Source of the DNA: a virus
Direction: 5' to 3' (one strand)
Virus record (IMG/VR): IMGVR_UViG_2929074307_000005
DNA: 64,000 bases
The stretch's first letter is position 1; every line of letters begins with the position of its first letter. This document shows positions 4,589-30,900 of the stretch, in pieces. Under the pieces are notes generated by a model. It ran no database searches. It saw only the letters and a list, made by a program, of their open reading frames with translations, and had not been told where the DNA came from. A program made the translations under genes and the position numbers.

Positions 4589-4776
4589 CGCAGGACCTCA
4601 CCAACATAACGCACCTCATCACCAACGACGATGGCCCGACCTGTTGCCGCCAGACGGCGAGCAACGGGCAGGGGAATGCCAGTGCTTCCAAGGGATATGC
4701 GCTGCGGGCCTAGCCGCAACGCGTTGAGGAAGGCAGTGTCGATACCGTTGCCGCGGCTGTCAGTGGTACGCATCAC
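4585..4776 (-). CDS. Hypothetical small protein
   Basis: Coupled ORF. Confidence 0.4.
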   Translation of the reverse strand: MMRTTDSRGNGIDTAFLNALRLGPQRISLGSTGIPLPVARRLAATGRAIVVGDEVRYVGEVLR

Positions 4777-5006
4777 GCCGCCCTCCGCTTGAAAGGACGG
4801 CGATTGTCGTTGGCCGGGCGCACACGGCGCATACGGATCTTCTCGCCCGTTTTGCGCGATACATCATATGCAATGTCTTTGATTGTTGCGGCAGTCGTCG
4901 GGTCGCTCACGCGGTACCAACGTGCGATCGAAAGGATTGCTGCTGCTGTGGTGCCCTGAGCAATGAACTCGTCGACGGTAAGGATGTGCGTCTGTCTGTT
5001 AGACAT
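4773..5006 (-). CDS. Hypothetical protein with a C-terminal RPANDNRRPF motif
   Basis: Coupled ORF; carries the recurrent ANDN motif. Confidence 0.45.
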   Translation of the reverse strand: MSNRQTHILTVDEFIAQGTTAAAILSIARWYRVSDPTTAATIKDIAYDVSRKTGEKIRMRRVRPANDNRRPFKRRAA

Positions 5007-5058
5007 GAATAAGTGCTCCTCGTGTGGTGGTGGTGCCGGTTGCGGTCAACCGGGGTGG

Positions 5059-7158
5059 TTAGGCGGCCTGCTTGGTTGGCAGGCTGTTATTGTTAGCGGT
5101 AGGCCATGCCTCCGGTGGGATTTTCATGTTTGTATTTTCGCGAATCCATTCTAGTCCGCGCTGGATGTGAGGTCGTCCATACTTGTCGGATGGCATACCT
5201 CTGTCTCTGTAGTCCTTTACGAACCCTTGGTCTTTCTTCCGGAGACGATTGGCGAATGCTCTAGCCGTTTCATGAACGACACAGTCTGGTGGAGCTACGT
5301 TAACTCTCACCCACTCGGCGCCTTCTTTTACTTTTGGGTAGCCATCAACGTGAGGCAGGCCACGCTGTATCCAGTGATAGATACTAGTAAGATGTTTGCC
5401 ATGGATTTTCGCAAATTCGGTTTTACTAATACATCCCTTTGGGACGCGTAATTTAGAACGCAGTGGGATATATGTGCTCATCCATTTAGTCGCGTCCTCC
5501 ACTGGGACGCCTTTAATTTTATCATACGGCATGCCGGCCCGGATAGGACCTTTCAGTTTATCTGGGTGGATGCCAATTCGTCTGGCAAAGTCAGACATAA
5601 TCTCATATCCTTCTGGAGGAAGCCCCCTCACATTTATGGCTACCCAATCCAATCCGTGCTGGATTACCACCGCCCGGTGTTTATCAATGGGCAGGCCTCG
5701 CCTTATCCAATCGGTAATTGTTCCGGAAGCCACCCCCACGCGTTTAGAGAACGCATGCTGAGATTCACTTCCTTGTTCAATTACCCTGACGTTACTAGCC
5801 ACCCACTCCAAGCCTTCTTTTTTTATTGGGTATTTATTAATGTTCGGCAGGCCATTTATTAACCACCTGTGAACATTTCCTGCACCGACCGCCTCCTTTG
5901 CCATTCTATTAAACTCGGCTGGCGTCACGCACCCCTCTGGCACCACCACCCTTAATTCTCGCAATTGCCCATCAAACTCGCCTATCTCTAGACCAGTTGG
6001 AAACTCATACCCGCACTTGCAGACTTTAGCCCGCTCGGCGCGAACTTCTTTACACTCCGGGCACCGACGCAAACGCCCGTCGCCCATCGATTGCAATCTT
6101 CTCTTGCGAGCGTCGCCATCGAGAGACCACTCAATAGGCGCATCGAACCAGCCGTGATCCATCCAGAGTCCAGCATGGTCGATCACTATCGCCATGTCTT
6201 TGCCTTCTGCTTTACGCAGCACGCGACCGATCATCTGCAAAAACAGTGCAAGTGATTTCGTGGGGCGCATGAGGATGACGGCGTCAATCGCCGGCAAATC
6301 GAAGCCTTCGGTAAAGACTTCGACGTTCGACAAGACCTTAATTGCTCCTGACGCCAGCGCGTTAACAGCACTGTCGCGTTCATCTGAATTTGTCGTGCCG
6401 TCTATGTGACGAGCTGGCACGCCGCTTTCATTGAACCGATCCACCAATGCCTTGCTCATATCTACGCTTGCTGCAAAGATCAGGGCGCGCTTGCCGCTAG
6501 CCTTTTCATTGTACTCTCGCACGGCATCGCCAATCAAAACTGGCGTGTTCATAACGCCTGCCAAATCCTTTTTGGCGTAATCGCCAGCTTGCATTCGTGC
6601 GGCAGACAAATCTGGATCAGACGGCGCGAAATACCTAAACTCTGAAAGATAACCTTCGTCGATCAGTTCGCGTGTCGATGGGCCAACCGTTAGCTCGTCA
6701 AACCAATTCGACAGGCCCTTACCGTCAAGGCGCTCCGGCGTAGCGGTGAGACCAATGTGCTTTGCATCGGAAAGTTGCTCACGGATCGCCGACCAAGACT
6801 TAGCTGCAAGGTGGTGGCACTCATCCCAAAAAACGGTCGAAGGGCGAGGCAAGTCATTTATACGACGAGCTAATGTGCCATGCGAAACGATCTGGACAGG
6901 CTTGCTGTAATCTGGTTCTGCGCGAGGCGACACTACGCCAAAATCAATGCCGGCTTTAGCAAATGAAGACGCAGCTTGGCGCTCGATTTCCTGACGGTGA
7001 CAAATAAACCAGACTGGGCCTTCCTGATCTGCGATCATAGAAGTCGCTACTTTGGTTTTACCGGCACCTGTTGGCATTTGAATTACAACGCTGCTTGATC
7101 TTTCCAACGCTTTGCGCGCGCTATCAATCACGTCAGCCTGATATGGGCGAAGTGTCAT
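5059..7158 (-). CDS. SF2 (DEAD/DEAH-type) helicase with a C4 zinc ribbon and five C-terminal ~45-aa tandem HTH-like repeats
   Basis: Walker A PTGAGKT and DECHH box. Zinc ribbon CPECK...CKCGYEFP. Repeats carry the consensus xFAxxxG....WIxRGLP..K.G...E.LEWV. Confidence 0.85.
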   Translation of the reverse strand: MTLRPYQADVIDSARKALERSSSVVIQMPTGAGKTKVATSMIADQEGPVWFICHRQEIERQAASSFAKAGIDFGVVSPRAEPDYSKPVQIVSHGTLARRINDLPRPSTVFWDECHHLAAKSWSAIREQLSDAKHIGLTATPERLDGKGLSNWFDELTVGPSTRELIDEGYLSEFRYFAPSDPDLSAARMQAGDYAKKDLAGVMNTPVLIGDAVREYNEKASGKRALIFAASVDMSKALVDRFNESGVPARHIDGTTNSDERDSAVNALASGAIKVLSNVEVFTEGFDLPAIDAVILMRPTKSLALFLQMIGRVLRKAEGKDMAIVIDHAGLWMDHGWFDAPIEWSLDGDARKRRLQSMGDGRLRRCPECKEVRAERAKVCKCGYEFPTGLEIGEFDGQLRELRVVVPEGCVTPAEFNRMAKEAVGAGNVHRWLINGLPNINKYPIKKEGLEWVASNVRVIEQGSESQHAFSKRVGVASGTITDWIRRGLPIDKHRAVVIQHGLDWVAINVRGLPPEGYEIMSDFARRIGIHPDKLKGPIRAGMPYDKIKGVPVEDATKWMSTYIPLRSKLRVPKGCISKTEFAKIHGKHLTSIYHWIQRGLPHVDGYPKVKEGAEWVRVNVAPPDCVVHETARAFANRLRKKDQGFVKDYRDRGMPSDKYGRPHIQRGLEWIRENTNMKIPPEAWPTANNNSLPTKQAA

Positions 7159-7227
7159 AATCGATTCCTCGAACAGTGTTTTTGGAGGGAGGGGGCGCTA
7201 CGCCCCGTCGCTATCTTTCGTGGTAAA

Positions 7228-7455
7228 TCATGTGACGCCGAGCCCAACAGCGCCAATGGTCACAAAGAAACCAATGACAACCGTCATCTCGACAGCTTCG
7301 CGCGCTGCGTATCGTATCCAAGGCATGGGGCGAGCGTGCTTCTTTGCGCGGTAATCAGGGCGCCGCATCGGCTCGTCACTGCCTGCACGCGCAGCGTCGG
7401 TGTGCAGGTCGGGCTCCATGTCGGCGAGCATTTCCAGCAGGGCGCGGTCCATCAC
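7228..7455 (-). CDS. Hypothetical protein
   Basis: ATGA overlap with the upstream gene. Confidence 0.4.
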   Translation of the reverse strand: MMDRALLEMLADMEPDLHTDAARAGSDEPMRRPDYRAKKHARPMPWIRYAAREAVEMTVVIGFFVTIGAVGLGVT

Positions 7456-7763: not shown

Positions 7764-7869
7764 TGGGTCACTCCTCGTGTTAGGTTGGTTCAGCAGATCA
7801 AGCTGGTGAGGCTGTCTTCGTGCTGTTCTGTCACCTTTATATGCGTATCAGTCATCCTATGTCAACATA

Positions 7870-7892
7870 GATGATGACAAAAACACATCATC
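7870..7892. promoter_or_regulatory. Palindromic operator-like site GATGATGacaaaaacaCATCATC in the leftward-operon promoter region
   Basis: Perfect 7-bp inverted arms in an AT-rich intergenic region; a second palindrome TTATGAT/ATCATAA lies at ~7940-7960. Confidence 0.35.
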
Positions 7893-7985
7893 AGAATTCA
7901 CAGGGTTAACCAGGCGTAAAGAATGTTCTTGAATTGTTCCGATTATGATGGAATCATAATTCAAGAGTTAAGCGTGTGAGGTGCC

Positions 7986-8216: not shown

Positions 8217-8894
8217 TTAGCGGGTGTTGTACTTGCCAACGACGCGGTGACAGACTGGCCAATCCGCGCGAAATTCCTTGAATTCCTTATGCGGGTTGTA
8301 CTGTTCCAGCATCCATTCGCGGTCATTGAAGCCGACGAGTCGCTTGATGATAGCTTCGTTCTCGTCCATTGCGCTTGTGTGATAAAGAATTACATCTTCA
8401 TCGCGAACCGGCGGCAAATTCGGGTTCACGAGTGCGGTTTCACCCGGACGATAGGCAGGAACCATTGATTCCCCGGACAATAGAAGGCCGTATCCACCTT
8501 TAACGCCCTGCAGTACTGCAGGCATTTTCATATAGCTGATTGGATCAAAGGTGATGATAACGTGTCCATCGCCGCCCTTCGCTGCAGCGTAAACGGGCAG
8601 GCCGCGCTCTTGGCTTACAAGCTGGTCGCCCGGGATTGGTGCAGGTGTAAAAGTATCAGCAATCGGCTTAGCTGATGACGCGGTCATTTCGCCATTGCCG
8701 AAGGCAAGCCAATCCTCATTAAGATCCAGCGCACGAGCAAGGCGGGCTACAAATTCAACACTGGCCCCGCGCTTCCCGCTTTCCAAAAGACTGATCGACG
8801 ACTTGTCTCGCCCAATAAGAGCGGCAAGGTCAGCCTGGCTCATTTCTTTAAGGTCACGCGCCAAACGAAGGCGCTGCGCGAAATCTTTGTCCAT
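8217..8894 (-). CDS. cI: CI-like prophage repressor (HTH_XRE N-domain plus S24 LexA-like peptidase C-domain)
   Basis: HTH MSQADLAALIGRDKSSISLLESGKR. S24 motifs GESMVP (catalytic Ser) and IIKRLVG (Lys). Start taken at MDKDF (8894). Confidence 0.85.
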   Translation of the reverse strand: MDKDFAQRLRLARDLKEMSQADLAALIGRDKSSISLLESGKRGASVEFVARLARALDLNEDWLAFGNGEMTASSAKPIADTFTPAPIPGDQLVSQERGLPVYAAAKGGDGHVIITFDPISYMKMPAVLQGVKGGYGLLLSGESMVPAYRPGETALVNPNLPPVRDEDVILYHTSAMDENEAIIKRLVGFNDREWMLEQYNPHKEFKEFRADWPVCHRVVGKYNTR

Positions 8895-8937
8895 GTTGCG
8901 CTTTTCGCATATTGTTGTGAAAATGTAACGTGCGAAA

Positions 8938-8957
8938 ATGTCACCACATGTTGACAT
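8938..8957. promoter_or_regulatory. Operator palindrome ATGTCAccacatgtTGACAT; TGTCA half-sites recur at ~8968 and ~8980
   Basis: Imperfect 20-bp palindrome overlapping the -35 of the rightward promoter, in the cI-cro intergenic region. Confidence 0.45.
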
Positions 8958-8979
8958 GGATGCGAATCTGTCATATATA
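8951..8979 (+). promoter_or_regulatory. Sigma70-type promoter TTGACA-17 bp-TATATA (PR-like, rightward)
   Basis: Consensus -35 and -10 hexamers with 17-bp spacing. Confidence 0.55.
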
Positions 8980-9428
8980 GGTGTCATCAACCGGCGCAAA
9001 AGACGCTGGACAGTTCGAAGGAGGGCCTACCTCATGATGCCAGAGAACATCCACCCAAGGATATCGGCACTCAATAGATAGAAGCCGCGCTAACGCGCAA
9101 TTGAAACTGAGGAGAGAGCAAATGACCAATTCCGCCGAAAGAAGCGAACCGGCTCTCGTTGAGGCGCCGCCGTAGGATCAATAGGGACGCTGCTGACCTT
9201 AATAGGGTCAGTGGTGCTTTCGGCGTTCCTGAATGTCGAGAGATTTATAGGACGGCGTTGTGAGCCGGCACCACCCGCTGCTCCGCCGTCCTCGTAATAC
9301 CCCGGCTTACACGAGGAGGGCTTGCGCCACTTCTACACCGGGGGTTCCTTCGCGAGTACCACCCCGCGCAGGACAACAGATGGCTTCACCAAAGTCATTT
9401 GTCAACCAACACCACACACGAGGAGATC

Positions 9429-9710
9429 ATGAAAGATTATGAAACCATAGAAGAAGTGCATCGCATGCACGAGGTGGGCGCCAACCCGACAGAGATCGGA
9501 AATGCGCTTAGCTTGCCCAGATCGACGGTAGCTTCAATTCTGCGTCGTCCTATTCCAAAACCTACAGCCGACCGCATTGTCGTGCGGTGCGTTTCGAACG
9601 GTGGATGGTCCACGGCCAATCACTGCGTCAGTTATATCGCAATGCCACGCATCCGTGCGCTGGAAGCCGCGAACGACAATTACGAACAGCCGGGCGCAAT
9701 CGCAGCCTGA
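9429..9710 (+). CDS. HTH DNA-binding early regulator (Cro/CII-like position)
   Basis: HTH EVGANPTEIGNALSLPRSTVASIL; preceded by caccacACACGAGGAGatcATG; C-terminal AANDN. Confidence 0.6.
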   Translation: MKDYETIEEVHRMHEVGANPTEIGNALSLPRSTVASILRRPIPKPTADRIVVRCVSNGGWSTANHCVSYIAMPRIRALEAANDNYEQPGAIAA

Positions 9711-9971: not shown

Positions 9972-10273
9972 CTTGCGAATGCGGTGACTGCTGGGATCTG
10001 CCCGGCTCAATTGTGACCCACAAGCTGACAGGCTGGAAGGGCATCATCATCGGCGACCGAGATGGCTGCATGTTCCTCACGGTGCGGTTCTGGATACCAG
10101 GCACCGGCCTTGGGACGATCGAAGTTTCGCGCTTCGAAGTCGAACCACCTGCCAGTGATGGCGGCGGCGGTGGCGGCTCTGAGGTCGGAACAGAAGAAGA
10201 CAACGTCATTCCGGTCGATTTCACCAAGGGCGTGAAGCTCACTAAAAACACCAAAACACGAGGAGTAGCTTGA
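9968..10273 (+). CDS. Hypothetical protein (Cys-rich N-terminus, Gly run)
   Basis: GTG start overlapping the upstream stop. Confidence 0.45.
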   Translation: MTCECGDCWDLPGSIVTHKLTGWKGIIIGDRDGCMFLTVRFWIPGTGLGTIEVSRFEVEPPASDGGGGGGSEVGTEEDNVIPVDFTKGVKLTKNTKTRGVA

Positions 10274-11073
10274 TGGGTAAACTTAAAGTTGGAGATAAGG
10301 TTAGAAGCCTTGTGACGCAGATCGACGTTCGTGCGGGCAAACTTTACGAGGCCGCTCGCAGTGATGCTGATAGTGGCGTTTGGGTTATCGATGATGTTGG
10401 TGACCAGTTCTACTTGACGAATGAAGAGTTCGAAATTCTGCCGGTTGCGATACCGACATTTGAGGTCGGGGATCGGGTACAAACTATTGCTGACTCACTT
10501 CCTTGGTACAGAGCGGGTGAAGTCGCGGAAGTCGTTATAGCAGATGGCGGAGATGACGATTGCTTTGTTCGATTTAACTCGGATCGAATGGCGAGCGACA
10601 GCTGGTATGTGAAGTGGAAGCATATCCAACTCGCTCCCCTCAAAATCGAAGCAGGCAAATACTACCGCACGCGTGACGGCCGTAAGGTTGGGCCTATGAA
10701 TGCTGCGGAAAGCGAGGGGTATGCTTTTTCTGGTGCATTGGTTGGCGTCGGTTATATTAAGATTTTTCAGTCAACTGGAGTACATGGTTCCATCTACATC
10801 CAGAATGAGCCAGATTTTGACCTCATCGCCGAATGGATTGAGGAGCCTGTCAAGGCATCTGCACCGGTTGCCGTGCAACAGGACTCACCAGAACTAACGC
10901 TCAAGCTCTCATTCGATGCCGTTGATGTAACCAATGCGATCAAAACCACCCTCCTGAAAACAAATCAGGGGTACGGCTTCGAGATTGCACGTCACGGTGA
11001 TTACGTCTGGGTTGATACGGGCAAGAAAGCGCCGATCGTGCTCAAGGCCAACGACGTGCAAGCCGCCGCCTAA
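10273..11073 (+). CDS. Hypothetical protein (267 aa)
   Basis: Conserved aacACGAGGAG element upstream; C-terminal KANDVQAAA. Confidence 0.55.
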   Translation: MGKLKVGDKVRSLVTQIDVRAGKLYEAARSDADSGVWVIDDVGDQFYLTNEEFEILPVAIPTFEVGDRVQTIADSLPWYRAGEVAEVVIADGGDDDCFVRFNSDRMASDSWYVKWKHIQLAPLKIEAGKYYRTRDGRKVGPMNAAESEGYAFSGALVGVGYIKIFQSTGVHGSIYIQNEPDFDLIAEWIEEPVKASAPVAVQQDSPELTLKLSFDAVDVTNAIKTTLLKTNQGYGFEIARHGDYVWVDTGKKAPIVLKANDVQAAA

Positions 11074-12871: not shown

Positions 12872-13645
12872 ATGGCTATCAGCCTATCAAGCCTCAAATC
12901 GACGAAGAGAAACGACCGGCCAGTCATGCTTTTGTATGGCGTCGACGGTATCGGCAAGACCAGCCTTGCTGCTGAGTTTCCAGATCCGATCTATCTGGCC
13001 ACAGAAGGCGAGCGTCCGCCGTCTGATATTGAAATGGCAACGCCAGGCACGATTGAAAGCTTCGAAGACCTGCTCAACATCATCGGCGAACTGCTGACCG
13101 TTGAACATGATCGGCGCACCGTCATTATCGACAGCGTCGACGGATTAGAACCGCTTGTCTGGGCGGCAACCTGTGCCCGCTTAGGAGTAAGCAGTATTGA
13201 AGAGCCTGGGTTCGGGCGTGGTTACGTCGAGGCTGATAGCGAGTGGCACGAGCTGATGTCTGCAGTCTCAGCGCTCTCGCGTACTGGAATCCACGTCGTG
13301 ATGCTGGCCCACCCTGAGATTATTCGGTTCGACAGTCCAGTCACCGATCCATACTCACGCTACACGATAAAGTTGCATAAACGAGCCAATTCTCTCGTCC
13401 GGGAAAAAGTCGATATCGTGGCCTTCATGAATTATCGCGTGTCCATCAAGGAGAAAGAGGTCGCTCGCCAAACGAAGGTGGCGCACGCGGAAGGTGGCAA
13501 GGAGCGTAATATTCATCTGAACGAAGGTGCGGGCTATGTGGCGAAAAATCGCTTCTCTATGCCGGACTCGATCGTTTACCGAAAAGGTCAGGGCTACGCT
13601 GAGTTAGCAAAGTTCTGGGCTGAAGAAAAAGCTGAAGCTGCATAG
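12872..13645 (+). CDS. P-loop ATPase, Sak4/AAA_24-like (RecA-fold recombination-associated)
   Basis: Walker A GVDGIGKTSLA near the N-terminus; size and context (next to an SSB-like gene). Confidence 0.65.
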   Translation: MAISLSSLKSTKRNDRPVMLLYGVDGIGKTSLAAEFPDPIYLATEGERPPSDIEMATPGTIESFEDLLNIIGELLTVEHDRRTVIIDSVDGLEPLVWAATCARLGVSSIEEPGFGRGYVEADSEWHELMSAVSALSRTGIHVVMLAHPEIIRFDSPVTDPYSRYTIKLHKRANSLVREKVDIVAFMNYRVSIKEKEVARQTKVAHAEGGKERNIHLNEGAGYVAKNRFSMPDSIVYRKGQGYAELAKFWAEEKAEAA

Positions 13646-14311: not shown

Positions 14312-14881
14312 ATGGCATCACTAGGTAAGACCTACGTCGCAGGTGACGTAGATACCACGCAGAAAGACTTTGAAGACCTGCCTGCGGGTATCATGCAGTT
14401 CGAGATCGAAGCTACAGACGTTGTTGAAACCGGGCCCGAAGGCGCAAGAACCGGCGTCGGCCTCAAGTACACGGCGAACGTGCTCGCTCCTGAAGAAGTC
14501 TCAGGACGCAAGTTTTTTGGCTTCATCAATCTCGAGAACAAGAACCCTACGGCGCAAGAAATTGGTCAGCGCGAGTTTGCTTCGCTCCGCCGTGCCTGTG
14601 GGATTGACCAAATCGACGACACTGAAGAACTGCATTTCCGAACCTACACCGTGAAGCTTGGATTGGGTCGACCTTCCAAGGATGGGAAATATCCAGCGCG
14701 CATGGAAGTAAAGCGTTACTTCTTCCCCGATGAAGGCAACGTGCCAGAGCCGAGCATTGACGCTCAGCAGCCTGCGGCGGCAGCGCAGCGGCCTGCCAAC
14801 GACAACCGTCTTGCAGCGGCAAACAATAACAAGCCTGCGCAGCCTGCAAAAGCTGCGGGCAGCCGTCCCTGGTCTAAGTAA
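14312..14881 (+). CDS. SSB-like protein (DUF669-like), tentative
   Basis: Size, acidic/Pro/Ala-rich C-terminal tail with ANDN, and position after a Sak4-like ATPase. Confidence 0.45.
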   Translation: MASLGKTYVAGDVDTTQKDFEDLPAGIMQFEIEATDVVETGPEGARTGVGLKYTANVLAPEEVSGRKFFGFINLENKNPTAQEIGQREFASLRRACGIDQIDDTEELHFRTYTVKLGLGRPSKDGKYPARMEVKRYFFPDEGNVPEPSIDAQQPAAAAQRPANDNRLAAANNNKPAQPAKAAGSRPWSK

Positions 14882-15456: not shown

Positions 15457-16515
15457 ATGCGGGTAACGCTTGACCGAGCGCAGCTTGCGCACGCCTTGTC
15501 GACCGTGACAAAGGCAGTTGAGGCCAGAACGACAATTCCGATTCTTGGCAACGTGCTTTTGTCCGCGGACAAAGGACAGCTGAGCATCACTGGCACCAAT
15601 CTCGATCTGGAAATCAGCACCAGTTTGCCGGTTCTGGATAGCCAAGAAGGCACTGTCACAGTTGCGGGTAAGTTGCTTCTGGATATTGCCAAGCGCGCCA
15701 CGAGTGACGTTAATTTGGAAGCCGACGGCAATCATCTGGTCGTTAAATCTGGCAAGAGCCGTTTCAAACTCGACACGCTTCCAGCTGCGGACTTCCCGTC
15801 CTTCAATCGCGGAAGCTTCGACACGACGATCGACATCGATCTAGCCGCGCTTGTTGGTGCGGTTAACTTCGCTGTCAGTAACGAAGACACCCGCTATTAC
15901 CTGAACGGCGTATTTTTGGAAGCGAAGGACGGCCAGATTGTTGCCACGGCAACAGACGGACATCGCCTTGCATCGACACGCATTGAGCAGGAAGCCACGT
16001 TTGCACCCGTTATTCTGCCGAACAAGCTGCTGTCATTGCTGCCCACCGGAGTCGTGTCGGTTTCGCTGTCATCAAACAAGGTGATGGTCGAGGTCGGTTC
16101 GACTGTCATCGTGTCGAAACTCGTCGACGGCACTTATCCAGATTACGAGCGCGTTATTCCAAAGCCCTCGGAGCGTGTCGCTACTCTGTCGGCTAAAGCA
16201 CTGCGCGAAGCAGTCGGCCGCACATCAGTTATCGCCAGCGAGCGTGGGCGCGCTGTGCGCTTATCATTCGCTTCGGATGCTCTGACGTTGAACGTTGCTA
16301 ATCCAGATCGCGGCGATGCGACTGAGGAGATGGAAGTCAACTTCAGTAGCGAGCCGCTGACGATCGGTTTTAACGGCCAATATGTCACCGACCTCATGGC
16401 AGCGTTTGGCGCGGATGAAGTTACGATGTCGATGGCCGATTCCGGTTCGCCTGCGCTGATCACGTCGGCAAGTAGGCCGGGATACAGGTGCGTACTTATG
16501 CCGATGCGGGTTTAG
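15457..16515 (+). CDS. dnaN: DNA polymerase III beta subunit (sliding clamp), phage-encoded
   Basis: N-terminus MRVTLDRAQLAHALSTVTKAVEARTTIPILGNVLL; three-domain length; conserved initiation element upstream. Confidence 0.85.
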   Translation: MRVTLDRAQLAHALSTVTKAVEARTTIPILGNVLLSADKGQLSITGTNLDLEISTSLPVLDSQEGTVTVAGKLLLDIAKRATSDVNLEADGNHLVVKSGKSRFKLDTLPAADFPSFNRGSFDTTIDIDLAALVGAVNFAVSNEDTRYYLNGVFLEAKDGQIVATATDGHRLASTRIEQEATFAPVILPNKLLSLLPTGVVSVSLSSNKVMVEVGSTVIVSKLVDGTYPDYERVIPKPSERVATLSAKALREAVGRTSVIASERGRAVRLSFASDALTLNVANPDRGDATEEMEVNFSSEPLTIGFNGQYVTDLMAAFGADEVTMSMADSGSPALITSASRPGYRCVLMPMRV

Positions 16516-18300: not shown

Positions 18301-20052
18301 ATGCTAACCTTACGAAACTACCAGTCAGAAGCAATAGACGCCGTATTCGACTATTGGCAAGAGGAGGCAGGCAATCCGCTTGTTGATCTTGCGACGGGCT
18401 GCGGCAAGTCGTTGGTTATGGCGTCTTTGATCCAGCGCCTCGTTGAAGGCTGGCCTGATATGCGCGTGATGGTCGTCACCCACGTCGCGGAGCTGATCGA
18501 GCAGAATTATCTGGAATTGCTTGGCGTCTGGCCGTTTGCGCCTGCAGGCATCTATTCGGCTGGTTTGGGTCGTCGTGATGCGCGCAGTCAGATCGTTTTT
18601 GCCGGCATTCAGACTGTTCATAACAAGGCGCAGAAAATCGGTCACGTCGACGTCCTTATGGTCGACGAGTGCCACCTGATTCCGATCAACAGCAACACGA
18701 TGTATCGCAAGTTCATTGATGCGCTGCTCGAGATCAACCCGGACATGAAGATCCTCGGACTGACTGCCACACCTTATCGGCTCGACAGCGGTCGCTTGGA
18801 TGAGGGCGCGGATCGTCTGTTTGATCAGATCGTCTACACCTACGGAGTTGCTGACGGTATCCGCGACGGCTTCCTTGCTCCACTGACGAGCAAGCCGACA
18901 GCAACAGAATACGACGTTAAAGGCGTCGGGCGGCTTGGCGGCGACTACAAACAGCGCGCGCTGGAAGAGGCAATCAATCGAACAGACCTCAATGATGCTG
19001 TGGTTTCTGAGATCATAGCAAAGGGCGCTGATCGTCGCTCCTGGCTTTGTTTCTGCGCCGGTGTAAAGGCTGCGCTGGACGTGCGCGACGTCTTCAGATC
19101 TCGCGGCATTACATGCGAGGCCGTCACGGGGGATACTCCTAAGGAAGAACGCCGCCGCATCCTTGAGGACTTCAAAGCATACCGCATTCAATGTGTGACG
19201 AACAATTCAGTTCTTACGACAGGTTTCAATCATAAGGGTGTTGATTTAATTGCATTTATGCGCCCGACGCTGTCTTTGAGTTTGTACGTCCAAATGGCTG
19301 GGCGTGGCACTCGTCCGCTCTACAAGGCTGGTGCGCCACTGGATACGGTTGAGGAGCGGCTTACTGCTATCTCGGCAGGCCCTAAACGTAATTGCCTCGT
19401 CCTGGATTTCGCGAAGCTTGTCGATCGGCACGGCCCTGTCGACATGGTCGAGCCTAAAGCGCCAAGCGCTGGCAATGGGGAGCCGCCAATCAAGATCTGC
19501 CCGACAGTGCCAGACGACAATGGGGCGATTGGCTGCGGTGAGAAGGTGCACATCTCGCTGATGAAATGCCCATGTTGCGGATATGACTTCCCTCCTAACG
19601 AGGACGAGAAGCTAACCCGCCAAGCCGCTGACGTTCCGATTGTCAGCACCGCCGAAGCAGAATGGCGCAAGGTAACAGGCCGGACGTTTCACTTTCACGA
19701 AGGCAAGGGCGACAAGCCGCCTTCGGTCAAGTGCAGCTACATCGCAGGATATACGCAGATCAATGAATGGCTCTGCCCACAGCATAGCGGGTTTGCGCAA
19801 ACTAAGGCGCATCGATGGTGGACGCAGCATGGAGGCCAGCGGCCGTTTCCAAAGACGGTCATGGAGTGGCTTGAGCGCCAGCGCGAGTTGCTCACCACCG
19901 ACGAAATCAGCGTCGTGCCGAACGGCAAATACTGGAATGTGAAAGACGTGCGGGCTGGAGACGTAGCAGATAACGACAACGTTCCGGAGCCTGCGAATGA
20001 CAATGTGTCTGTTGGCCTTTCGGAGCTTCTAGACGACGAAATTCCATTTTGA
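18301..20052 (+). CDS. SF2 helicase with a zinc ribbon and a C-terminal SSB-tail-like DDEIPF
   Basis: GCGKS Walker A and DECH box. Zinc ribbon CPTVPDDNGAIGCGEK...CPCCGYDFP. C-terminus ...LLDDEIPF. Confidence 0.85.
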   Translation: MLTLRNYQSEAIDAVFDYWQEEAGNPLVDLATGCGKSLVMASLIQRLVEGWPDMRVMVVTHVAELIEQNYLELLGVWPFAPAGIYSAGLGRRDARSQIVFAGIQTVHNKAQKIGHVDVLMVDECHLIPINSNTMYRKFIDALLEINPDMKILGLTATPYRLDSGRLDEGADRLFDQIVYTYGVADGIRDGFLAPLTSKPTATEYDVKGVGRLGGDYKQRALEEAINRTDLNDAVVSEIIAKGADRRSWLCFCAGVKAALDVRDVFRSRGITCEAVTGDTPKEERRRILEDFKAYRIQCVTNNSVLTTGFNHKGVDLIAFMRPTLSLSLYVQMAGRGTRPLYKAGAPLDTVEERLTAISAGPKRNCLVLDFAKLVDRHGPVDMVEPKAPSAGNGEPPIKICPTVPDDNGAIGCGEKVHISLMKCPCCGYDFPPNEDEKLTRQAADVPIVSTAEAEWRKVTGRTFHFHEGKGDKPPSVKCSYIAGYTQINEWLCPQHSGFAQTKAHRWWTQHGGQRPFPKTVMEWLERQRELLTTDEISVVPNGKYWNVKDVRAGDVADNDNVPEPANDNVSVGLSELLDDEIPF

Positions 20053-21366: not shown

Positions 21367-21939
21367 ATGCATGCACCGCTACCCAGCGGGCCTTTCGGCT
21401 GCGTCCTTGCGGACCCGCCATGGTCTTTCAGAACATACGGTAAAAAAGACGTCGCACCGGCACGAGGCCGTCAGCCTTACGGCGTGATGTCACTTGACGA
21501 TATCAAAGCACTGCCTGTCGAACAGGTATGTGCTCGCGACTGTTTGTTGTTCATGTGGACGGTTTCACATCTACAGGCTGCTGCGATCGAGGTGGCTGCC
21601 GCATGGGGCTTTAAGCCTGTTAGTGTTGCTTTTGTCTGGGACAAAGGCCGCATGGGCATGGGTTATTGGACACGGCAGGAAGTCGAAATCTGTCATCTGT
21701 TCAAGCGCGGTAAGCCTCGCCGTCTATCGAAAGGCGTGCGCTCCCTGATCAAGGCCCCGCGCCGCGAGCATTCCCGCAAGCCAGATGAGCAATACGGACG
21801 CATCGAGAGGCTGGTTGACGGTCCTTATCTCGAGCTCTTCGCTCGTCAGGCGTGGCCGGGCTGGTCTTCATGGGGCAACGAGTCTGATAAGTATGTTGCC
21901 GCAAACGATAATCAGGATTTGCTGGGGAGGGTGGCTTAA
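21367..21939 (+). CDS. N6-adenine DNA methyltransferase, MT-A70 family
   Basis: DPPW motif (CVLADPPWSF); conserved initiation element upstream. Confidence 0.8.
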   Translation: MHAPLPSGPFGCVLADPPWSFRTYGKKDVAPARGRQPYGVMSLDDIKALPVEQVCARDCLLFMWTVSHLQAAAIEVAAAWGFKPVSVAFVWDKGRMGMGYWTRQEVEICHLFKRGKPRRLSKGVRSLIKAPRREHSRKPDEQYGRIERLVDGPYLELFARQAWPGWSSWGNESDKYVAANDNQDLLGRVA

Positions 21940-22751
21940 TGGCGAAGCTCTCCAAGGCGCAGGCGAAAACACACACTCAAGCAGTTGCTATCCTTCAGCA
22001 AGAACAGTTGTCGGAAGATGATAAGGAATTCGTATATCGCAACTGGAACGAGGGCGCGAACCACGTAAACGGCGCAGCTGGTGCATTCTTCACCCCATTC
22101 GATATGGCGTTTGATTTTGCGATAGATGCTGGCGGCGGTCGCATTATTGACCTGTGTGCTGGGATTGGAATGCTCTCTTACGCCATTTGGCAGCGTAGCC
22201 GTTTCAACGACAATAGGCCGCAAATTACCTGCGTCGAGCGTAATGCCGATTATCTTGAGGTCGGGAAAAAGTTGCTGCCAGAAGCAGAATGGATTCACGC
22301 TGACGTATTTGATGTTCTCGATATGGGACTGGGGCACTTCGATACTGCGATTAGCAACCCTCCGTTCGGAAATATCAAGCGGACCAGAAACTCTCCGAGA
22401 TACAGCGGCAAGGATTTCGAATTCCATGTAATTGATATTGCGTCACATTTAGCGGACTACGGCACGTTCATCGTTCCCCAAATGTCGGCAGGCTTCAATT
22501 ATTCCGGGCGGAATAGCTATGAGCGTCAGACCAGTGGCAAAGCCGTTAAGTTTCAGGAGTTGACCGGTCTGCATTTCGATGCAGGCTGCGGCGTCGATAC
22601 TGCCTATTTCATCGATCAGTGGAAAGGCGTCTCTCCAATGTGCGAGATCGTTTGCGTTGAATTTACAGATGCGCCCGTCGTTGCCGCGAAAGCGCAACCG
22701 GCGAACGACAATGTGTCAGCTCAGCCCAGCCTCTTCGGTGACGCAGCATGA
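21939..22751 (+). CDS. N6-adenine DNA methyltransferase (NPPF class)
   Basis: SAM-binding IDLCAGIGMLS and catalytic ISNPPFG; C-terminus ...PANDNVSAQPSLFGDAA. Confidence 0.75.
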   Translation: MAKLSKAQAKTHTQAVAILQQEQLSEDDKEFVYRNWNEGANHVNGAAGAFFTPFDMAFDFAIDAGGGRIIDLCAGIGMLSYAIWQRSRFNDNRPQITCVERNADYLEVGKKLLPEAEWIHADVFDVLDMGLGHFDTAISNPPFGNIKRTRNSPRYSGKDFEFHVIDIASHLADYGTFIVPQMSAGFNYSGRNSYERQTSGKAVKFQELTGLHFDAGCGVDTAYFIDQWKGVSPMCEIVCVEFTDAPVVAAKAQPANDNVSAQPSLFGDAA

Positions 22752-23065
22752 GCCATCCAGATCAATGTCACGTCTGCTTCCGTCACGCCGTGGGACTCGG
22801 GGTGCAGGAGGGCAAGGAACCGATCCGCTGGCTATGCAAGGAGTGCGCAGACATTGCCGAGCATATCCGTTCCCGACGCAGGATGGACCCTTACGAACTG
22901 CGGGCCCTTGATACCGGCGTTGAGGCGGTTGGGGAGTTTTTGCAGTCCATACAGAAAACCGACCTCGCCGACTGCGATGAGCTTGAAGCGCGCATTCTGG
23001 TGAAAACAGCGTGGGAGGCTTGCGGGCGAGGGATGAGGGAAGCACTGAAGGAGGCGCCGTTTTGA
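22748..23065 (+). CDS. Hypothetical Cys-rich protein (CHVC...CKEC)
   Basis: ATGA overlap with the upstream gene. Confidence 0.45.
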   Translation: MSHPDQCHVCFRHAVGLGVQEGKEPIRWLCKECADIAEHIRSRRRMDPYELRALDTGVEAVGEFLQSIQKTDLADCDELEARILVKTAWEACGRGMREALKEAPF

Positions 23066-24093
23066 CCGCCTACTACAACGAATTCGATCCTAAAGCTGCC
23101 GCTTGGCTGCGCGAGCTGATCAAAGCAGGACACATAGCCCCGGGAGATGTTGATGAGCGTTCAATTGTCGATATTCGACCTGCCGACCTCGTCGGATACA
23201 CACAATGTCACTTCTTTGCCGGTATCGGCGTCTGGTCCTACGCATTGCGTCGAGCAGGATGGCACGACGACCGTCCTGTCTGGACAGGTTCATGTCCCTG
23301 CCAACCTTTCAGCGCGGCAGGCAAAGGAGATGGGTTTGCTGACGAGCGGCACCTATGGCCGCACTTCCACTGGCTTATTCAAAACTGCCGACCTGCAGTC
23401 GTCTTTGGCGAGCAAGTTGCGAGCAAGGACGGACTCGGCTGGCTCGACCTTGTACAAGCTGACCTGGAAGGATCGGGCTACGCCAGCGGGGCGGTCGATA
23501 CCTGCGCTGCGGGCTTCGGTGCGCCGCACATCAGACAGCGCCTCTATTGGGTGGCCCACGCCGACGACACGCGATCACAAGGACGGAGGGGAGTGTCAGA
23601 ACGTTCCGCTGAACGCATTGTTGGGGCGAGTGGCGTGGCTGACTGGATGGCCGACGGCGAGATGTGGGGGCAATCCGGAGGGGTACGGGAACGCCGATCG
23701 TCAGAATGGACCGAGAGGAAGGTTGGAGGACACCGTGCCACTGGCAGGTTGGCCGACAACGACAACGACGGACGCATTGCGCCACCCATCACCGAACTTC
23801 AAAACAAAGAACGTCACACTGAACCACGCAGCAGCAATGGCAGGCCCGGCCCGACTAACGGCCACTGGTCAGATGCTGACTGGCTCTTTTGCCGGGATGG
23901 AAAGTGGCGGCCAGTTGAACCCGGCACATTCCCGCTGGCTCATGGGTCTGCCGCCAGAGTGGGACGATTGCGCGGTTACGGCAATGCAATCAATGCCGAG
24001 CAAGCGCAAGCGTTCATCGAAGCGTATCGCGAAACCGAATTAGTTGCAGCCAACGACAATCACTGCAGCAATACGCTGTGGCCCTCCGCATAG
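23062..24093 (+). CDS. DNA cytosine-5 methyltransferase
   Basis: Motif I FFAGIGV, motif [11 protein letters not shown], and a QxRxR-like HIRQRLY. Start uncertain (TTG 23062). Confidence 0.7.
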
Positions 24094-27311: not shown

Positions 27312-27821
27312 ATGCGAAACATCTGGTTTATGAGCGATACCCATTTTGGGCACGCGAACATCATCAAATACAGCCGAACGCAGTTCGATAGCGTTGATGA
27401 GATGGAAAGCGCCATCATCGAGCGCTGGAATGAAAAGGTGAGTAAGCAAGACCTGGTTTATCATCTCGGAGATTTTGCATGGTCGGCAAAAGACGCAAAG
27501 CGCGTCAGACCTAAACTCAATGGCTCCATTCGCCTGATTGTTGGCAATCATGATGACATTCCTGCGCTGGCATCTGCTGGACTATTCCAAAGAATTCAGA
27601 TGTGGCGTCAGTTTTCCGAAATCGGAGTAACTGCATCGCACTTACCAATGAGGCGAGAACAAATCCGCCACGGCAGTATGAACGTCCATGGCCACGTACA
27701 CGGCAATACCAGTGGGTTGGAAAACTTTCATTTCGATGTATCTGCGGAAAGCGTGAATTATTCGCCAGTCCATTTCGACGAGATTGCAGACTGGGCTAAT
27801 TCGAACAGGGCATCATCATGA
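27312..27821 (+). CDS. Calcineurin-like metallophosphoesterase
   Basis: DTHFGH, GDF and GNHD motifs; aaaACGAGGAGagacacggATG upstream. Confidence 0.8.
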   Translation: MRNIWFMSDTHFGHANIIKYSRTQFDSVDEMESAIIERWNEKVSKQDLVYHLGDFAWSAKDAKRVRPKLNGSIRLIVGNHDDIPALASAGLFQRIQMWRQFSEIGVTASHLPMRREQIRHGSMNVHGHVHGNTSGLENFHFDVSAESVNYSPVHFDEIADWANSNRASS

Positions 27822-28339
27822 AGGCCCGCAAACCAAAGGTTGGCACTTCGGTGTCAACCCAGACTGTCCGCATTAATGGCATCAGAACAATCATTACGAC
27901 ACGCGACGGCAAGGTGACAACAAAAGCAGCCCTGCCTCTGGAATGGGAACTGCAAGCAGCACAAGTTCGCAGCCTGCGTAAACTGCCAGAATACGTGCAC
28001 ACAGCGCGAGACGTGCAGCTGGGAACATTCACACTGGCTGGAGATCAGAACGCAGCCAAGCGTGGCCCCAAGGCGAGAGCGGAAGCGTTAGCGGCAGGAC
28101 TGACGCCGGGAGAAGCAGACGTCCGGATATATCTCTACGGTGGCGTGCTGCGGCAGATTGAAAACAAGGTCGGCAAGGCGAAGCTCGAACCAAGCCAGAT
28201 AACCCGTCACCAGCTGCTTGATGCTCTTGGCTTTCCCGTCGTGGTCGTCAGGGCAGTTACCGAGGATGATGCAGCGGAACAGGCGGTAAGGCTGGTTAAA
28301 GGCTGGCTGAGTGAAAGCGCGACAAACCAAGCCGCGTAA
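27818..28339 (+). CDS. Hypothetical protein
   Basis: ATGA overlap with the upstream gene. Confidence 0.5.
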   Translation: MKARKPKVGTSVSTQTVRINGIRTIITTRDGKVTTKAALPLEWELQAAQVRSLRKLPEYVHTARDVQLGTFTLAGDQNAAKRGPKARAEALAAGLTPGEADVRIYLYGGVLRQIENKVGKAKLEPSQITRHQLLDALGFPVVVVRAVTEDDAAEQAVRLVKGWLSESATNQAA

Positions 28340-28367
28340 GTGATGAACCAAACACGAGGAGAATTTT

Positions 28368-28733
28368 ATGAGCAAAGCAGTAACAAACAAAATCATCCCT
28401 GAAGGCTTCTATTGGTCGAAGTTGTGCGGAATGGCTTTAAGAAAGAGACAGCTAGGATCACCTGTATCTGTAGAACGGCACACCATGGCCCCAAGTTCTT
28501 TGTTGAGGCGGGCGCTTGCAGAAATATCGTCTGTCGAGAACGACGCGAATGAAGCCAAAAAGCTGACATCAGAAGACGCTTCCCGTTACGGTTCTGCATT
28601 GTGGTCTGGCAAACTGAAAGAATATTTCTCGTGGAGGGCGGGGCAGGGCTTGTCGTGGTGGCATGAACAAGAGCGCCTTTATCCTTCCGCAGCCAATGAC
28701 AATTCGGCAGCAGCAGTCAGGAAGGCAGCATGA
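28368..28733 (+). CDS. Hypothetical protein (C-terminal AANDNSAAAV)
   Basis: ccaaACACGAGGAGaattttATG upstream. Confidence 0.45.
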   Translation: MSKAVTNKIIPEGFYWSKLCGMALRKRQLGSPVSVERHTMAPSSLLRRALAEISSVENDANEAKKLTSEDASRYGSALWSGKLKEYFSWRAGQGLSWWHEQERLYPSAANDNSAAAVRKAA

Positions 28734-29638
28734 GCAGGCACAAGTCCCTTGCCGGAGCCATGACTGCTTTGATGGCTTACAAAAATCGGCCTGAAAGCGA
28801 AATCATACCCGTTTCAACAAACTGGAATGTGGTGCCTGAGAATAGCAACGAACCTGAAGTGATATCGCAGATGCATACTGAGCGGCGCATTCAGATACTT
28901 CCGACCGTTGAGGAAATCATGCGGAATGTCGGCAGTGAGGACATCGAGCGCAATGATCTAGGCCAGATAGTTCGTATAGGTCGCCTCAAATTCAGCGATG
29001 GCACGCAAGTTGAGGCAGGAAATAAATATGGACCCGGTGGCGAGGTAATCGCCACCAAACACCGAATGCCAGCGGGTGCAATGCTTGGATGCCGTGAACA
29101 GGAAAGCAGAGCGCTAGGAGGAGATGAAAATCCATCCGAAGTTGCAGCAAGTAATAACTACTTTCTAGCTGCGTTCGAATTGAAGCGCCGAGAGCGTATT
29201 CCATCAGGGAAAAAGACAAAACGAACTTATCAAACGCATGACCAAGCGAAAGAAGACCTCGCAAAAGCATACGCAAACACGCCAGCGCTGCCGCCAGTAA
29301 CAAGATGCCGGCCTGGCCTACCCAATGCAGGCAACCGCATTGGAGACAGCTTTCTTGGGATGAAGAAAACGACAACTGGTGAATCGGGATCAATGGGGTG
29401 GCAAGACGTTTCTAGTGCCCTGGTAGATCGCGAGATATGGGCCCAAGCCATTGAGGCGCTATCGGAGAGGGATAGAACGGCAATGGATACGGCGGCACAT
29501 GGGAAGGTGAGGAACTACGAAGGGTTAGGGATATCTTTGGGCTTCAAGACAGAATATTCGAGACGCAAGGGCGGACGGAAGGCCTTAACGGCGGCCAATG
29601 ATAATCTTCAAGAAAACATAAAAAGATTTTCTGCCTAG
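28730..29638 (+). CDS. Hypothetical protein (C-terminal AANDNLQENI)
   Basis: ATGA overlap with the upstream gene. Confidence 0.5.
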   Translation: MSRHKSLAGAMTALMAYKNRPESEIIPVSTNWNVVPENSNEPEVISQMHTERRIQILPTVEEIMRNVGSEDIERNDLGQIVRIGRLKFSDGTQVEAGNKYGPGGEVIATKHRMPAGAMLGCREQESRALGGDENPSEVAASNNYFLAAFELKRRERIPSGKKTKRTYQTHDQAKEDLAKAYANTPALPPVTRCRPGLPNAGNRIGDSFLGMKKTTTGESGSMGWQDVSSALVDREIWAQAIEALSERDRTAMDTAAHGKVRNYEGLGISLGFKTEYSRRKGGRKALTAANDNLQENIKRFSA

Positions 29639-29970
29639 GTCCATATTTCGCATAGTTATGGTTCTTAGATGTGAAGGGGTCGAGATGGAGACATTACGAC
29701 CTCTAACAGTTCCGACCACGGACCCTGCGCTATGCTGCATCAAGTGCAGCCTCTGAGTGTGGGGTAACTACCCGACGACGGTATTCAGTCGTCAATCGGA
29801 AAAGCAAGCGCAATCCCCTGCAGTCATTGGCTCGCAGACATAGGCAGTGCACGCCTGCATTGCGCTTGCCACTCTATTCAAATCCCCGGCGCCGTTTCTC
29901 CTCCGGCAGACGGGATACGGCGGGTTGAGGTTGGCAACGATAAAGCCAGTGCCTCCCCGCCAAACAATTC

Positions 29971-30046
29971 GCCCTTGTAGCTCAGTTGGGAGAGCGGCTG
30001 CCTTGTAAGCAGATGGTCCGGGGTTCTATTCCTCGCGAGGGCACCA
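29971..30046 (+). tRNA. tRNA-Thr (anticodon UGU), 76 nt with encoded CCA
   Basis: Cloverleaf folded by hand: acceptor GCCCTTG/CGAGGGC, D-arm GCTC..GAGC, anticodon loop cTTGTaa, T-arm CGGGG/CCTCG; one G-A mismatch in the anticodon stem. Confidence 0.65.
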
Positions 30047-30053
30047 ATTCAAT

Positions 30054-30129
30054 GCGGAGTGGAGAAGTGGTCATCTCGTCTGGTTCATACCCAGAAGACC
30101 GTCGGTTCGAATCCGACCTACCGCAACCA
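30054..30129 (+). tRNA. tRNA-Met-like (anticodon CAU) with an imperfect acceptor stem; possible degenerate phage tRNA
   Basis: Perfect T-arm GTCGG-TTCGAAT-CCGAC and anticodon arm TCTGG-ttCATac-CCAGA. Initiator-like 3' end CCGCAACCA. Acceptor stem has two mismatches. Confidence 0.45.
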
Positions 30130-30243
30130 AACAAGACCAATGGCATCTGTAATTCTTGACCTCTTGCAGATGCTTATCAGCGGGTGAGCGAAAGCTCCCC
30201 GCTGTTCTTGATAGAGGTCATTATCAGCCAATGGAGTCAAGCC

Positions 30244-30900
30244 ATGGGTTCTTTCAGGGATTTATCAGGCCAGATATTTGGTCGACTGACCGTAATTGAT
30301 CGAGCACCCAATAAGGGTGGGCGTACAATGTGGAATTATTTGTGTGAATGCGGGAACGCAGGAAGTACTGCGTCATACTACCTTACAACGGGCGGAACCA
30401 CGAGTTGTGGCTGTTTCCATCGAGAAATGGTTGGAAAAATGGGCCGCGATCAAATCATCCATGGTGCCACGAAGGGCGGCAAGCTGACAGCGACTTACTC
30501 ATCGTGGAGCGCAATGCGTGAAAGGGTGCTGAGTAAAACGCATCACGCATACGCTAGGTATGGCGGACGAGGTATTAAGATTTGTGATCGCTGGCTTGTG
30601 GGTGAAGGTTTGCTTTCCGGCTACGAGTGCTTCCTAGAAGATATGGGCGAGCGACCTGACGGGCATTCAATAGACCGCATTGACACCAACGGTAACTATG
30701 AGCCCGGTAATTGCCGTTGGGCTACACCTGCAACGCAGGCGAGAAACGCAGTCGACAATAAGATGTCAGGCATGGATGTTGGCATCCTTCACGCCATGGT
30801 GGCTAATGATAACTCACCTCTGTCAACGATGGCTGATAGGTTCGGTATATCCAAGCAGCATGCTTGGAGGATCAAGACAGGGCAGAGATGGGCGGCATAG
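30244..30900 (+). CDS. HNH_3-type endonuclease-like protein
   Basis: HSIDRIDTNGNYEPGNCRWATPATQARN; C-terminal VANDNSPLS. Confidence 0.55.
   Translation: MGSFRDLSGQIFGRLTVIDRAPNKGGRTMWNYLCECGNAGSTASYYLTTGGTTSCGCFHREMVGKMGRDQIIHGATKGGKLTATYSSWSAMRERVLSKTHHAYARYGGRGIKICDRWLVGEGLLSGYECFLEDMGERPDGHSIDRIDTNGNYEPGNCRWATPATQARNAVDNKMSGMDVGILHAMVANDNSPLSTMADRFGISKQHAWRIKTGQRWAA

Follow-up and report, generated by a model that had tools for sequence, protein, structure and literature searches.

Why do unrelated proteins of one phage share a short peptide at or close to their C-termini? The question is raised by a stretch of 64,000 nucleotides from IMG/VR virus record IMGVR_UViG_2929074307_000005, here called the window. 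An initial annotation had described a recurrent in-frame A-N-D-N in the C-terminal tails or linkers of its early proteins, and every occurrence that it named was found where it had been placed. We consider it fairly probable that these tails are genome-encoded mimics of the host transfer-messenger RNA (tmRNA, SsrA) tag, which would send early lytic proteins to the ClpXP protease.

Recurrence and reading frame of the motif

Matches were counted against shuffled controls, as the initial annotation had suggested. The DNA 12-mer GCSAAYGAYAAY occurred 8 times in the window against 0.19 expected, and none of 100 shuffles reached 8. The core AAYGAYAAY was found 22 times (4.06 expected). Six-frame translation placed 18 of these 22 matches in frame within called genes or long open reading frames (ORFs). 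The four off-frame or antisense matches (307 on the minus strand; 7273, 15528 and 29368 on the plus strand) are at about chance level.

The peptide was then counted in the 97 ORFs that a greedy caller returned for the window. As a null model, residues were shuffled within each protein (5000 shuffles). NDN was present 18 times over all proteins (shuffle mean 1.7) and within the last 35 residues of 11 proteins (mean 0.21). The pattern NDN.{3,16}A$ was matched by 7 proteins (mean 0.01), and in all three cases 0 of 5000 shuffles reached the observed number. Thus, the shuffles rule out chance or composition as the source of the motif. The same ORFs revealed a feature missed by the initial annotation, a C-terminal Ala-Ala in 15 of the 97 ORFs compared with 1.2 expected from shuffles. 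NDN tails were confined to the early region of the window, as had been claimed (10 of 55 early ORFs, 0 of 41 late ORFs). Two of the instances originally listed fell away. PQNDNDNTR in the linker of the PrimPol primase is a different motif, of which orthologues conserve only DNT-R, and the internal ADNDNDG of the C5 methyltransferase is incidental. Non-conservation ruled out both the primase linker QNDNDNT and this internal NDN as further instances.

For the analysis of reading frames, the window was pooled with 22 related loci (23 regions). Sense frame 0 accounted for 221 of the 274 AAYGAYAAY matches; a further 14 fell into another sense frame, 30 lay on the antisense strand and 9 between genes. 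The ratio of AAC to AAT over 95 distinct ANDN tails was 0.59/0.41, compared with 0.58/0.42 genome-wide, and all four Ala codons were in use. Synonymous codon choice at A, N, D and N broadly tracked genome usage. Because of the sense-frame bias, the strand and the free synonymous variation, the motif is a selected peptide and no DNA site, as the initial annotation had argued. A signal in DNA or RNA that lies in coding sequence by coincidence, such as a protein-binding site, a methylation target, a Chi-like sequence or a processing site, would agree with the 40-fold over-representation of the 12-mer and with its co-orientation with transcription. However, such a signal does not account for 221 of 274 occurrences in one reading frame of the sense strand. 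In addition, the degenerate positions are exactly third codon positions with broadly genome-like codons, and the distance of the motif is fixed to protein C-termini and to no DNA landmark. The analysis of frame, strand and synonymous sites effectively refutes a nucleic acid signal, which retains hardly any probability.

The tails mimic the host tmRNA tag

The initial annotation did not recognise the motif as a described one. AANDN is, however, the conserved start of the alphaproteobacterial tmRNA/SsrA tag, and the tails match this tag also in length and in the Ala-Ala end. The tag of A. tumefaciens is ANDNNAKEYALAA (PMC12493166, Table 1) and that of Caulobacter is AANDNFAEEFAVAA, a string that occurs in PMC9393093. 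The tmRNA tag of the host was not found by literature search. A viral contig (L051) begins with the 3' part of Rfam alpha_tmRNA (103.5 bits), which encodes ANDNNAQGYALAA. The integrase adjoining this fragment occurs, as exact sequence and as cluster, only in Brucella/Ochrobactrum genomes (Brucella sp. 2280, B. anthropi, B. pseudogrignonensis, B. pituitosa and Ochrobactrum). Because this tmRNA lies beside a Brucella/Ochrobactrum-only integrase, the native tag of the host family can be read as one with ANDN at its start and AA at its end.

Viral contigs were also searched for ANDN-x6-L-A-A-stop, which returned at least 120 loci on IMG/VR contigs (L027-L146). For 75 of these loci ARAGORN called a tmRNA gene, in most cases a permuted one, with tags of the form ANDN...LAA. 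A minority of the ANDN tags came from standard non-permuted tmRNAs, for example ANDNVEYDYALAA. On many viral contigs a tmRNA gene, usually of the permuted kind, is located at a contig end or close to it, an arrangement that would be consistent with frequent prophage integration into ssrA. No tmRNA was found in the window or in the helicase-centred loci of its relatives.

The anatomy of the tails was derived from 98 non-redundant NDN tails of window relatives. A is the last residue of 59, and 46 have AA there. NDN is most often followed by 7-10 further residues, compared with 8-9 in native tags. Among the 59 tails ending in A, NDN is directly preceded by A in 49, and one position further back A, P or V is found in 55. 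Read at the level of the peptide, the tails reproduce A-ANDN with the untemplated Ala included. They consist of [A/P/V]-A-N-D-N, about 7-10 variable residues and a free Ala-Ala, sometimes replaced by Val-Ala, Ser-Ala or Cys-Ala. Tail lengths differ among orthologues through insertions and deletions. An unbiased count of tripeptides in the last 22 residues, ranked by the number of families, placed AND and NDN first (30 each), followed by EAA, LAA, VAA, AAA and RAA. The Ala-Ala end was observed in 160 of 823 non-redundant proteins of the related loci, and an AA or VA end without NDN is also common among the proteins of these phages.

The AlphaFold model of the MT-A70 methyltransferase has a mean predicted local distance difference test (pLDDT) score of 68 and a core that is confident in parts. 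Residues 172-190, which form the tail, score below 50, and the tail is predicted to be disordered. Sequence, length, C-terminal end and disorder of the tails thus all mimic those of the host tag. As in an SsrA-like degron, we found an Ala-Ala (or variant) end, an N-terminal part identical to that of the host tag, tag-like spacing and an exposed, unstructured location; the hydrophobic Leu at position -3 was mostly lacking.

Native alphaproteobacterial SsrA tags (AANDNFAEEFAVAA, ANDNNAKEYALAA, ANDNNAQGYALAA) share with the tails the A-A-N-D-N start, a length of about 12-15 residues, the free Ala-Ala and the disordered extreme C-terminus. In contrast to the native tags, which are added co-translationally to broken proteins by trans-translation, the phage tails are encoded in frame before the ordinary stops of intact genes. 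Their middle is free to vary, and position -3 is rarely Leu. The tails as true tmRNA-added tags were ruled out, since they are encoded in ordinary genes before normal stop codons and the window is without a tmRNA.

Distribution among phages and possible role of the tails

The window can be assigned to a prophage of the Brucella/Ochrobactrum family. An identical helicase is encoded in NCBI assembly GCA_004341145.1, on one of its contigs, and the nearest relatives are Ochrobactrum/Brucella prophages. A nucleotide search of the phage collection returned no close relative of the window. Relatives were recovered as 24 helicase-centred loci. Their hosts include Brucella/Ochrobactrum, Falsochrobactrum, Limoniibacter, Paenochrobactrum, Agrobacterium, Rhizobium, Neorhizobium, Ensifer, Shinella, Aureimonas, Pelagibacterium, Ferrovibrio and Xanthobacteraceae. 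The window prophage and its relatives all belong to Alphaproteobacteria, mainly Brucellaceae and Rhizobiaceae. Nearly all of the 24 loci carry tails, and two distant ones (Roseicella; a cyanobacterium) have none. Clustering of the related loci gave 31 protein families with NDN tails, which in relatives include nucleases and annealing/recombination proteins.

For Sak4, the Cas4 exonuclease and MT-A70, some orthologues have a tail and others do not. Sak4-like proteins end in ...YWPV followed by TLPEAA, ANDNAAQRDAA or AEAA, and Cas4 exonucleases end in ...VWVDG followed by AKG, AANDNEQRRVA or ATNAAA. The tail behaves as a module, gained and lost within families. The same tails were also found in two cultured phages. 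Rhizobium phage 16-3 has full tails on p044, p056, p085, p096 and p097, NDN only on p088 and p078, and an AA end in 12 of 73 ORFs. In Rhizobium phage RHph_TM3_3_14B, 14 of 67 ORFs end in AA.

Four phages served as controls, and none of them had NDN tails. A listing of Cas4 exonuclease homologues was used only for the choice of control phages. Escherichia coli phage slur01 shares the helicase, Cas4 exonuclease and clamp module (0 NDN anywhere, AA ends in 2 of 78 ORFs). The lytic Brucella phage Tb, from the same host family, has homologous helicase, Sak4, SSB and primase (AA ends 1 of 60). Paracoccus phage vB_PmaS-R3 has another alphaproteobacterial host (AA ends 0 of 52), and Pseudomonas phage PMG1 is another temperate phage (AA ends 2 of 83). 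A motif intrinsic to the protein families was ruled out by the gain and loss among orthologues and by the tail-free homologous modules of slur01, Tb and the Paracoccus phage. PMG1 ruled out a general trait of temperate phages. Judged by these controls, the feature is neither intrinsic, nor general to the phages of the host, nor general to temperate phages, and we assign it to a 16-3-like temperate lineage of Alphaproteobacteria.

The likeness to the SsrA tag and the Ala-Ala end favour, among the candidate functions named in the initial annotation, a recognition tag for a protease. The phage probably makes its tailed early proteins deliberately short-lived. In this mechanism, [A/P/V]-A-N-D-N would tether the tailed protein to the SspB adaptor and the terminal Ala-Ala would be the recognition signal for ClpX. 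Lessner 2007 and Chien 2007 reportedly identified NDN as the portion of the tag to which SspB of alphaproteobacteria binds. The tethered early lytic proteins would then be degraded by ClpXP, or by other proteases acting on SsrA-tagged proteins, and would be constitutively unstable. Targets in the window would be the Cro-like regulator, three DNA methyltransferases and small proteins of unknown function. The purpose would probably be to keep down potentially toxic early functions, both in lysogens and while the choice between lysis and lysogeny is made, and to restrict early functions in time during lytic growth. Tagged early proteins next to an untagged CI-like repressor would fit a temperate phage that limits leaky or prolonged early functions. 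ClpXP substrates of Caulobacter characteristically end in AA, and CdnL is stabilised when its AA is replaced by DD (PMC5324124). Caulobacter ClpXP degrades proteins of the SsrA/SspB pathway (PMC8119881), and deletion of sspB slows the breakdown of an ssrA-tagged protein (PMC9393093). The presence of SspB in alphaproteobacteria is stated in a passage of PMC8138137 that cites Lessner 2007.

Several observations weigh against degradation of the tailed proteins by ClpXP. Position -3 of the AA-ending proteins is mostly E, R, V, K or D and seldom the Leu of the native ...LAA (8 of 160 AA ends are LAA). Because Leu is rare at this position, the tails may be weaker, perhaps adaptor-dependent, ClpX degrons. 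The confinement to the early region, which stood in the window, broke down in relatives. The portal protein of RHph_TM3_3_14B (L148 34596-35864), a late structural protein, bears a full tail ...EPPANDNKSDDEAQAA, so that the tag is not strictly early there. This tail does not fit a rationale of early toxic proteins. Since Brucella phage Tb manages without tails, they are dispensable for growth on this host. Finally, the helicase and SSB-like families conserve NDN, but their members end in ...IPF and ...RPWSK. Simple degradation fails to explain these two families because the terminal Ala is absent. Their NDN may serve adaptor binding without degradation, which would suit a decoy or a timer, or may have a second partner.

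A decoy would use the tails to occupy SspB and/or ClpXP while the carriers are not destroyed. Abundant early proteins could saturate the adaptor or the protease, and other phage or host substrates would be stabilised or the ClpXP-dependent cell cycle would be disturbed. The evidence for SsrA mimicry applies here in the same way, and ClpXP has a central part in the cell cycle of Alphaproteobacteria (PMC8119881). The helicase (fam0) and the SSB-like protein (fam5), which keep one or two NDN and no terminal Ala, would be pure SspB sponges. However, most tails bear the terminal AA, which makes the decoy itself a substrate. More than 30 tagged families would also be an odd design for an inhibitor, since a single abundant decoy would suffice. 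We regard titration as unlikely.

A second alternative is lineage-specific docking, in which ANDN would bind a hub of phage or host origin, for instance the beta-clamp, SSB-like protein or SPFH/Band_7 protein, and thereby build a factory for replication and modification, with a coincidental likeness to SsrA. This would agree with the limitation of the motif to one temperate lineage and its absence from other phages of the same hosts, and with its presence on replication proteins (helicase, SSB-like) that lack a degron end. The tails also hold clamp-binding-like QxSLF and SSB-tip-like DDEIPF, and from these co-occurring docking motifs they can be viewed as platforms for linear motifs. They resemble in this respect the beta-clamp motif QL[SD]LF and the SSB tip DDDIPF (QPSLF/QADLF and DDEIPF in the tails), but ANDN itself matches neither consensus. 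Docking of ANDN to the beta-clamp, a suggestion of the initial annotation, was not borne out: the motif does not match QL[SD]LF or QxxLxxF, and a separate QxSLF/QADLF motif sits between NDN and AA in the methyltransferase tails. Furthermore, docking leaves unexplained the strong excess of C-terminal AA, the tag-like spacing and the exact identity with the first five residues of the host tag, preceding Ala included. The motif is also found on proteins unrelated to replication (Cro-like protein, small hypothetical proteins, a portal). A docking function is given a comparably low probability.

The proteolytic reading can be extended to a timer. The 16-3-like lineage would have evolved a portable two-part tag from host quality control, shuffled it onto and off dozens of unrelated proteins and set their lifetimes with it. 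The abundant helicase and SSB-like proteins, with NDN and no degron, would compete for SspB as sponges and so end degradation after the commitment to lytic replication. We offer this proteolytic timer or commitment switch, for which mimicry of the tmRNA tag would be the sole building material, as a speculative and rather doubtful scheme.

The SsrA-like degradation proposed here has precedents. In mycobacteriophage BPs, the repressor is inactivated by means of an ssrA-like tag at its C-terminus and the integrase has a C-terminal proteolysis signal (PMC4557955). BPs likewise is a temperate phage whose own regulators, the repressor gp33(136) and the integrase, carry an ssrA-like degron, and host proteolysis tunes lysis and lysogeny. 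In contrast to the tails described here, only one or two BPs proteins are tagged, the tag is removed by integration within the repressor gene, and the host belongs to a different phylum. The alphaproteobacterial tails cover about 30 families, mostly enzymes of DNA metabolism, leave the CI-like repressor untagged and include a putative adaptor element. Integration-dependent immunity of the BPs type was ruled out, as the CI-like repressor (8217..8999, minus strand) ends in ...GKYNTR, with neither NDN nor AA, and the tags are on many early enzymes.

Unstable proteins are also known from temperate coliphages, namely lambda O (ClpXP), CII (FtsH), N and Xis (Lon), and the Mu repressor and MuA (ClpX). 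These too are early or regulatory phage proteins kept short-lived by AAA+ proteases of the host. Each has an idiosyncratic degron, whereas the tails are one uniform, portable, host-copied tag on many unrelated proteins. ClpXP substrates of Caulobacter such as CdnL, FtsZ and others resemble the tails in the terminal AA or VA, which is required for turnover; these host degrons consist of AA/VA only, with no upstream AANDN reported in PMC5324124. In our literature searches we found no earlier account of phages of Alphaproteobacteria that encode ANDN or ssrA-like tails, and a search with the peptide string gave mostly noise. Single ssrA-like tags on mycobacteriophage repressors are already known. 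What appears to be new is the uniform, portable two-part copy of a host tag with the presumed adaptor site included, the occurrence of this copy in about 30 unrelated families of a single phage lineage, and the presence of clamp-binding-like and SSB-tip-like motifs beside it in the same tails.

If tag-directed degradation holds, one portable tag copied from the host would set the lifetimes of much of a phage's early proteome, by a signal that is hard for the host to evolve away from. The tails would be a marker, readable from sequence, of predicted unstable proteins in alphaproteobacterial prophages (Brucella/Ochrobactrum, Agrobacterium, Rhizobium, Sinorhizobium). For synthetic biology in the same hosts, they would also be a source of naturally occurring degrons graded in strength. 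Sinorhizobium meliloti phage 16-3 is a tractable case because the same tails are present there, and it could show regulated proteolysis shaping lysogeny. Where adaptor site, clamp-binding-like and SSB-tip-like motifs share a tail, partner binding possibly masks the degron and spares engaged proteins.

Individual tails and neighbouring features in the window

The window has seven full SsrA-like tails, each running to the stop codon; four end in AA, one in VA and two in SA. On the minus strand, PANDNRRPFKRRAA (4776..4817) closes a hypothetical protein of 77 residues (4773..5006). It is identical in the L003 orthologue, and a 77-residue protein of L008 that does not cluster with it ends in PANDNRARRYSKRAA. 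The other six are on the plus strand. The Cro-like helix-turn-helix protein (9399/9429..9710) ends in AANDNYEQPGAIAA (9666..9707), and its orthologues (fam9) keep AANDN[YF] and ...IAA with spacer residues gained or lost.

Three tails belong to DNA methyltransferases. The MT-A70 methyltransferase (21367..21939) carries AANDNQDLLGRVA at 21898..21936. In its 120 closest homologue clusters from the large protein collection, NDN lies just past the domain end in 94, 107 end in A, and the spacer is highly variable. A subgroup of these homologues (P0077, P0078, P0089, P0092, P0094, P0098, P0102) ends in ...RGWPVQEAA without NDN, and one of this subgroup is labelled as coming from a metagenome-assembled genome of Delftia (Betaproteobacteria). 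This hints that the NDN element tracks the host class while the AA end is kept. The second methyltransferase (21939..22751) ends in PANDNVSAQPSLFGDAA (22698..22748), with a clamp-binding-like QPSLF between NDN and AA; 7 of 7 members of its family (fam16) have NDN, Q..[SD/N]LF and AA. The C5 cytosine methyltransferase (23011/23062..24093) has a tail of 15 residues at 24046..24090, and NDN...A is present in 3 of 4 members of fam28.

Motifs of the clamp-binding type (QPSLFG/QLSLFG/QADLFG) are located between NDN and the terminal AA of DNA methyltransferase tails. They were seen at 22713-22748 in the window, in fam16 members of L005, L008, L011, L020, L022 and L023, and in fam36/fam39. The phage itself encodes a beta-clamp (15457..16515). 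The QxSLF-type tails suggest clamp-tethered, replication-coupled methylation, and clamp binding possibly masks the degron of these methyltransferases.

The last two full tails are on hypothetical proteins. AANDNSAAAVRKAA (28689..28730) ends the protein at 28368..28733, and AANDNLQENIKRFSA (29591..29635) ends the protein at 28730..29638 (phrog_36072), whose L019 orthologue (fam83) ends in AANDNLAAAIKKFVA.

Two plus-strand replication proteins carry NDN without a terminal Ala. The DUF669 SSB-like protein (14312..14881) has the linker PANDNRLAAANNN...GSRPWSK (14792..14878), and its end reads ...PANDN..ANNN...RPWSK. One or two [AS]NDN in the linker together with an ...RPW[SG]K end were found in 15 of 17 members of fam5. 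The extreme C-terminus ...G(S/T)RRPW(S/G)K is conserved throughout the lineage and is a candidate short docking motif. The SF2 helicase (18301..20052) ends in ADNDNVPEPANDNVSVGLSELLDDEIPF (19966..20049), with two NDN followed by DDEIPF; its C-terminus reads ...ADNDNVPEPANDN...DDEIPF. In fam0, 21 of 26 members have NDN and 24 of 26 an [ILV]-[PQ]-F tip, mostly behind acidic residues. The helicase of Brucella phage Tb is without this SSB-tip-like end. DDEIPF (20032-20049) resembles the acidic C-terminal tip of bacterial SSB, DDDIPF.

The membership of the remaining cases is less clear. VANDN at 30799..30813 in the HNH endonuclease (30184..30900, plus strand) lies 31 residues before a ...QRWAA end and is an uncertain member; the endonuclease is a singleton family. 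A degenerate tail with an NNN variant, ANNNSLPTKQAA (5062..5097, minus strand), ends the second helicase (5059..7158, phrog_16). This helicase also shows a weak C-terminal match to Cox-like excisionases/repressors at residues 570-620. A degenerate short tail, ANDVQAAA (11047..11070, plus strand), ends the protein at 10270..11073, relatives of which end in ...LVAA, ...LLAAA or ...VSAA. The protein at 27818..28339 ends in ...SESATNQAA (28313..28336, plus strand). Because its orthologues (fam12) have ...ESANDNQPKTHEEAA, this tail looks like a decayed NDN with AA retained. The Sak4-like annealing protein (12746/12872..13645) has an AA-only tail, ...EEKAEAA (13622..13642, plus strand). In its family (fam1), 17 of 22 members have the AA end and 4 of 22 have NDN, with ANDN/SNDN inserted ahead of AA in these four orthologues.

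Other features of the window concern the prophage as a whole. A tyrosine integrase (Phage_integrase, DUF6538) at 1-1254 overruns the left end of the window and indicates where the prophage begins on that side. Genes for tRNA-Thr(TGT) and tRNA-Met(CAT) are located at 29971-30129, where the early region gives way to the late one, and two related loci (L016, L019) have tRNAs at the equivalent place. Amid the late genes, 38475-42208 holds a transposase of 991 residues on the minus strand (phrog_7951) and a serine resolvase (41549..42208), which together look like a Tn3-family insertion. By coordinate mapping, the contig of GCA_004341145.1 with the identical helicase appears to end at about window position 37917, just ahead of this Tn3-like element. 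On the minus strand, 57055-59603 contains two genes for family-2 glycosyltransferases in a patch of low GC content (0.42-0.47, compared with about 0.53 in other parts). Both are probably cargo genes for lysogenic conversion, whose products would modify surface polysaccharide.

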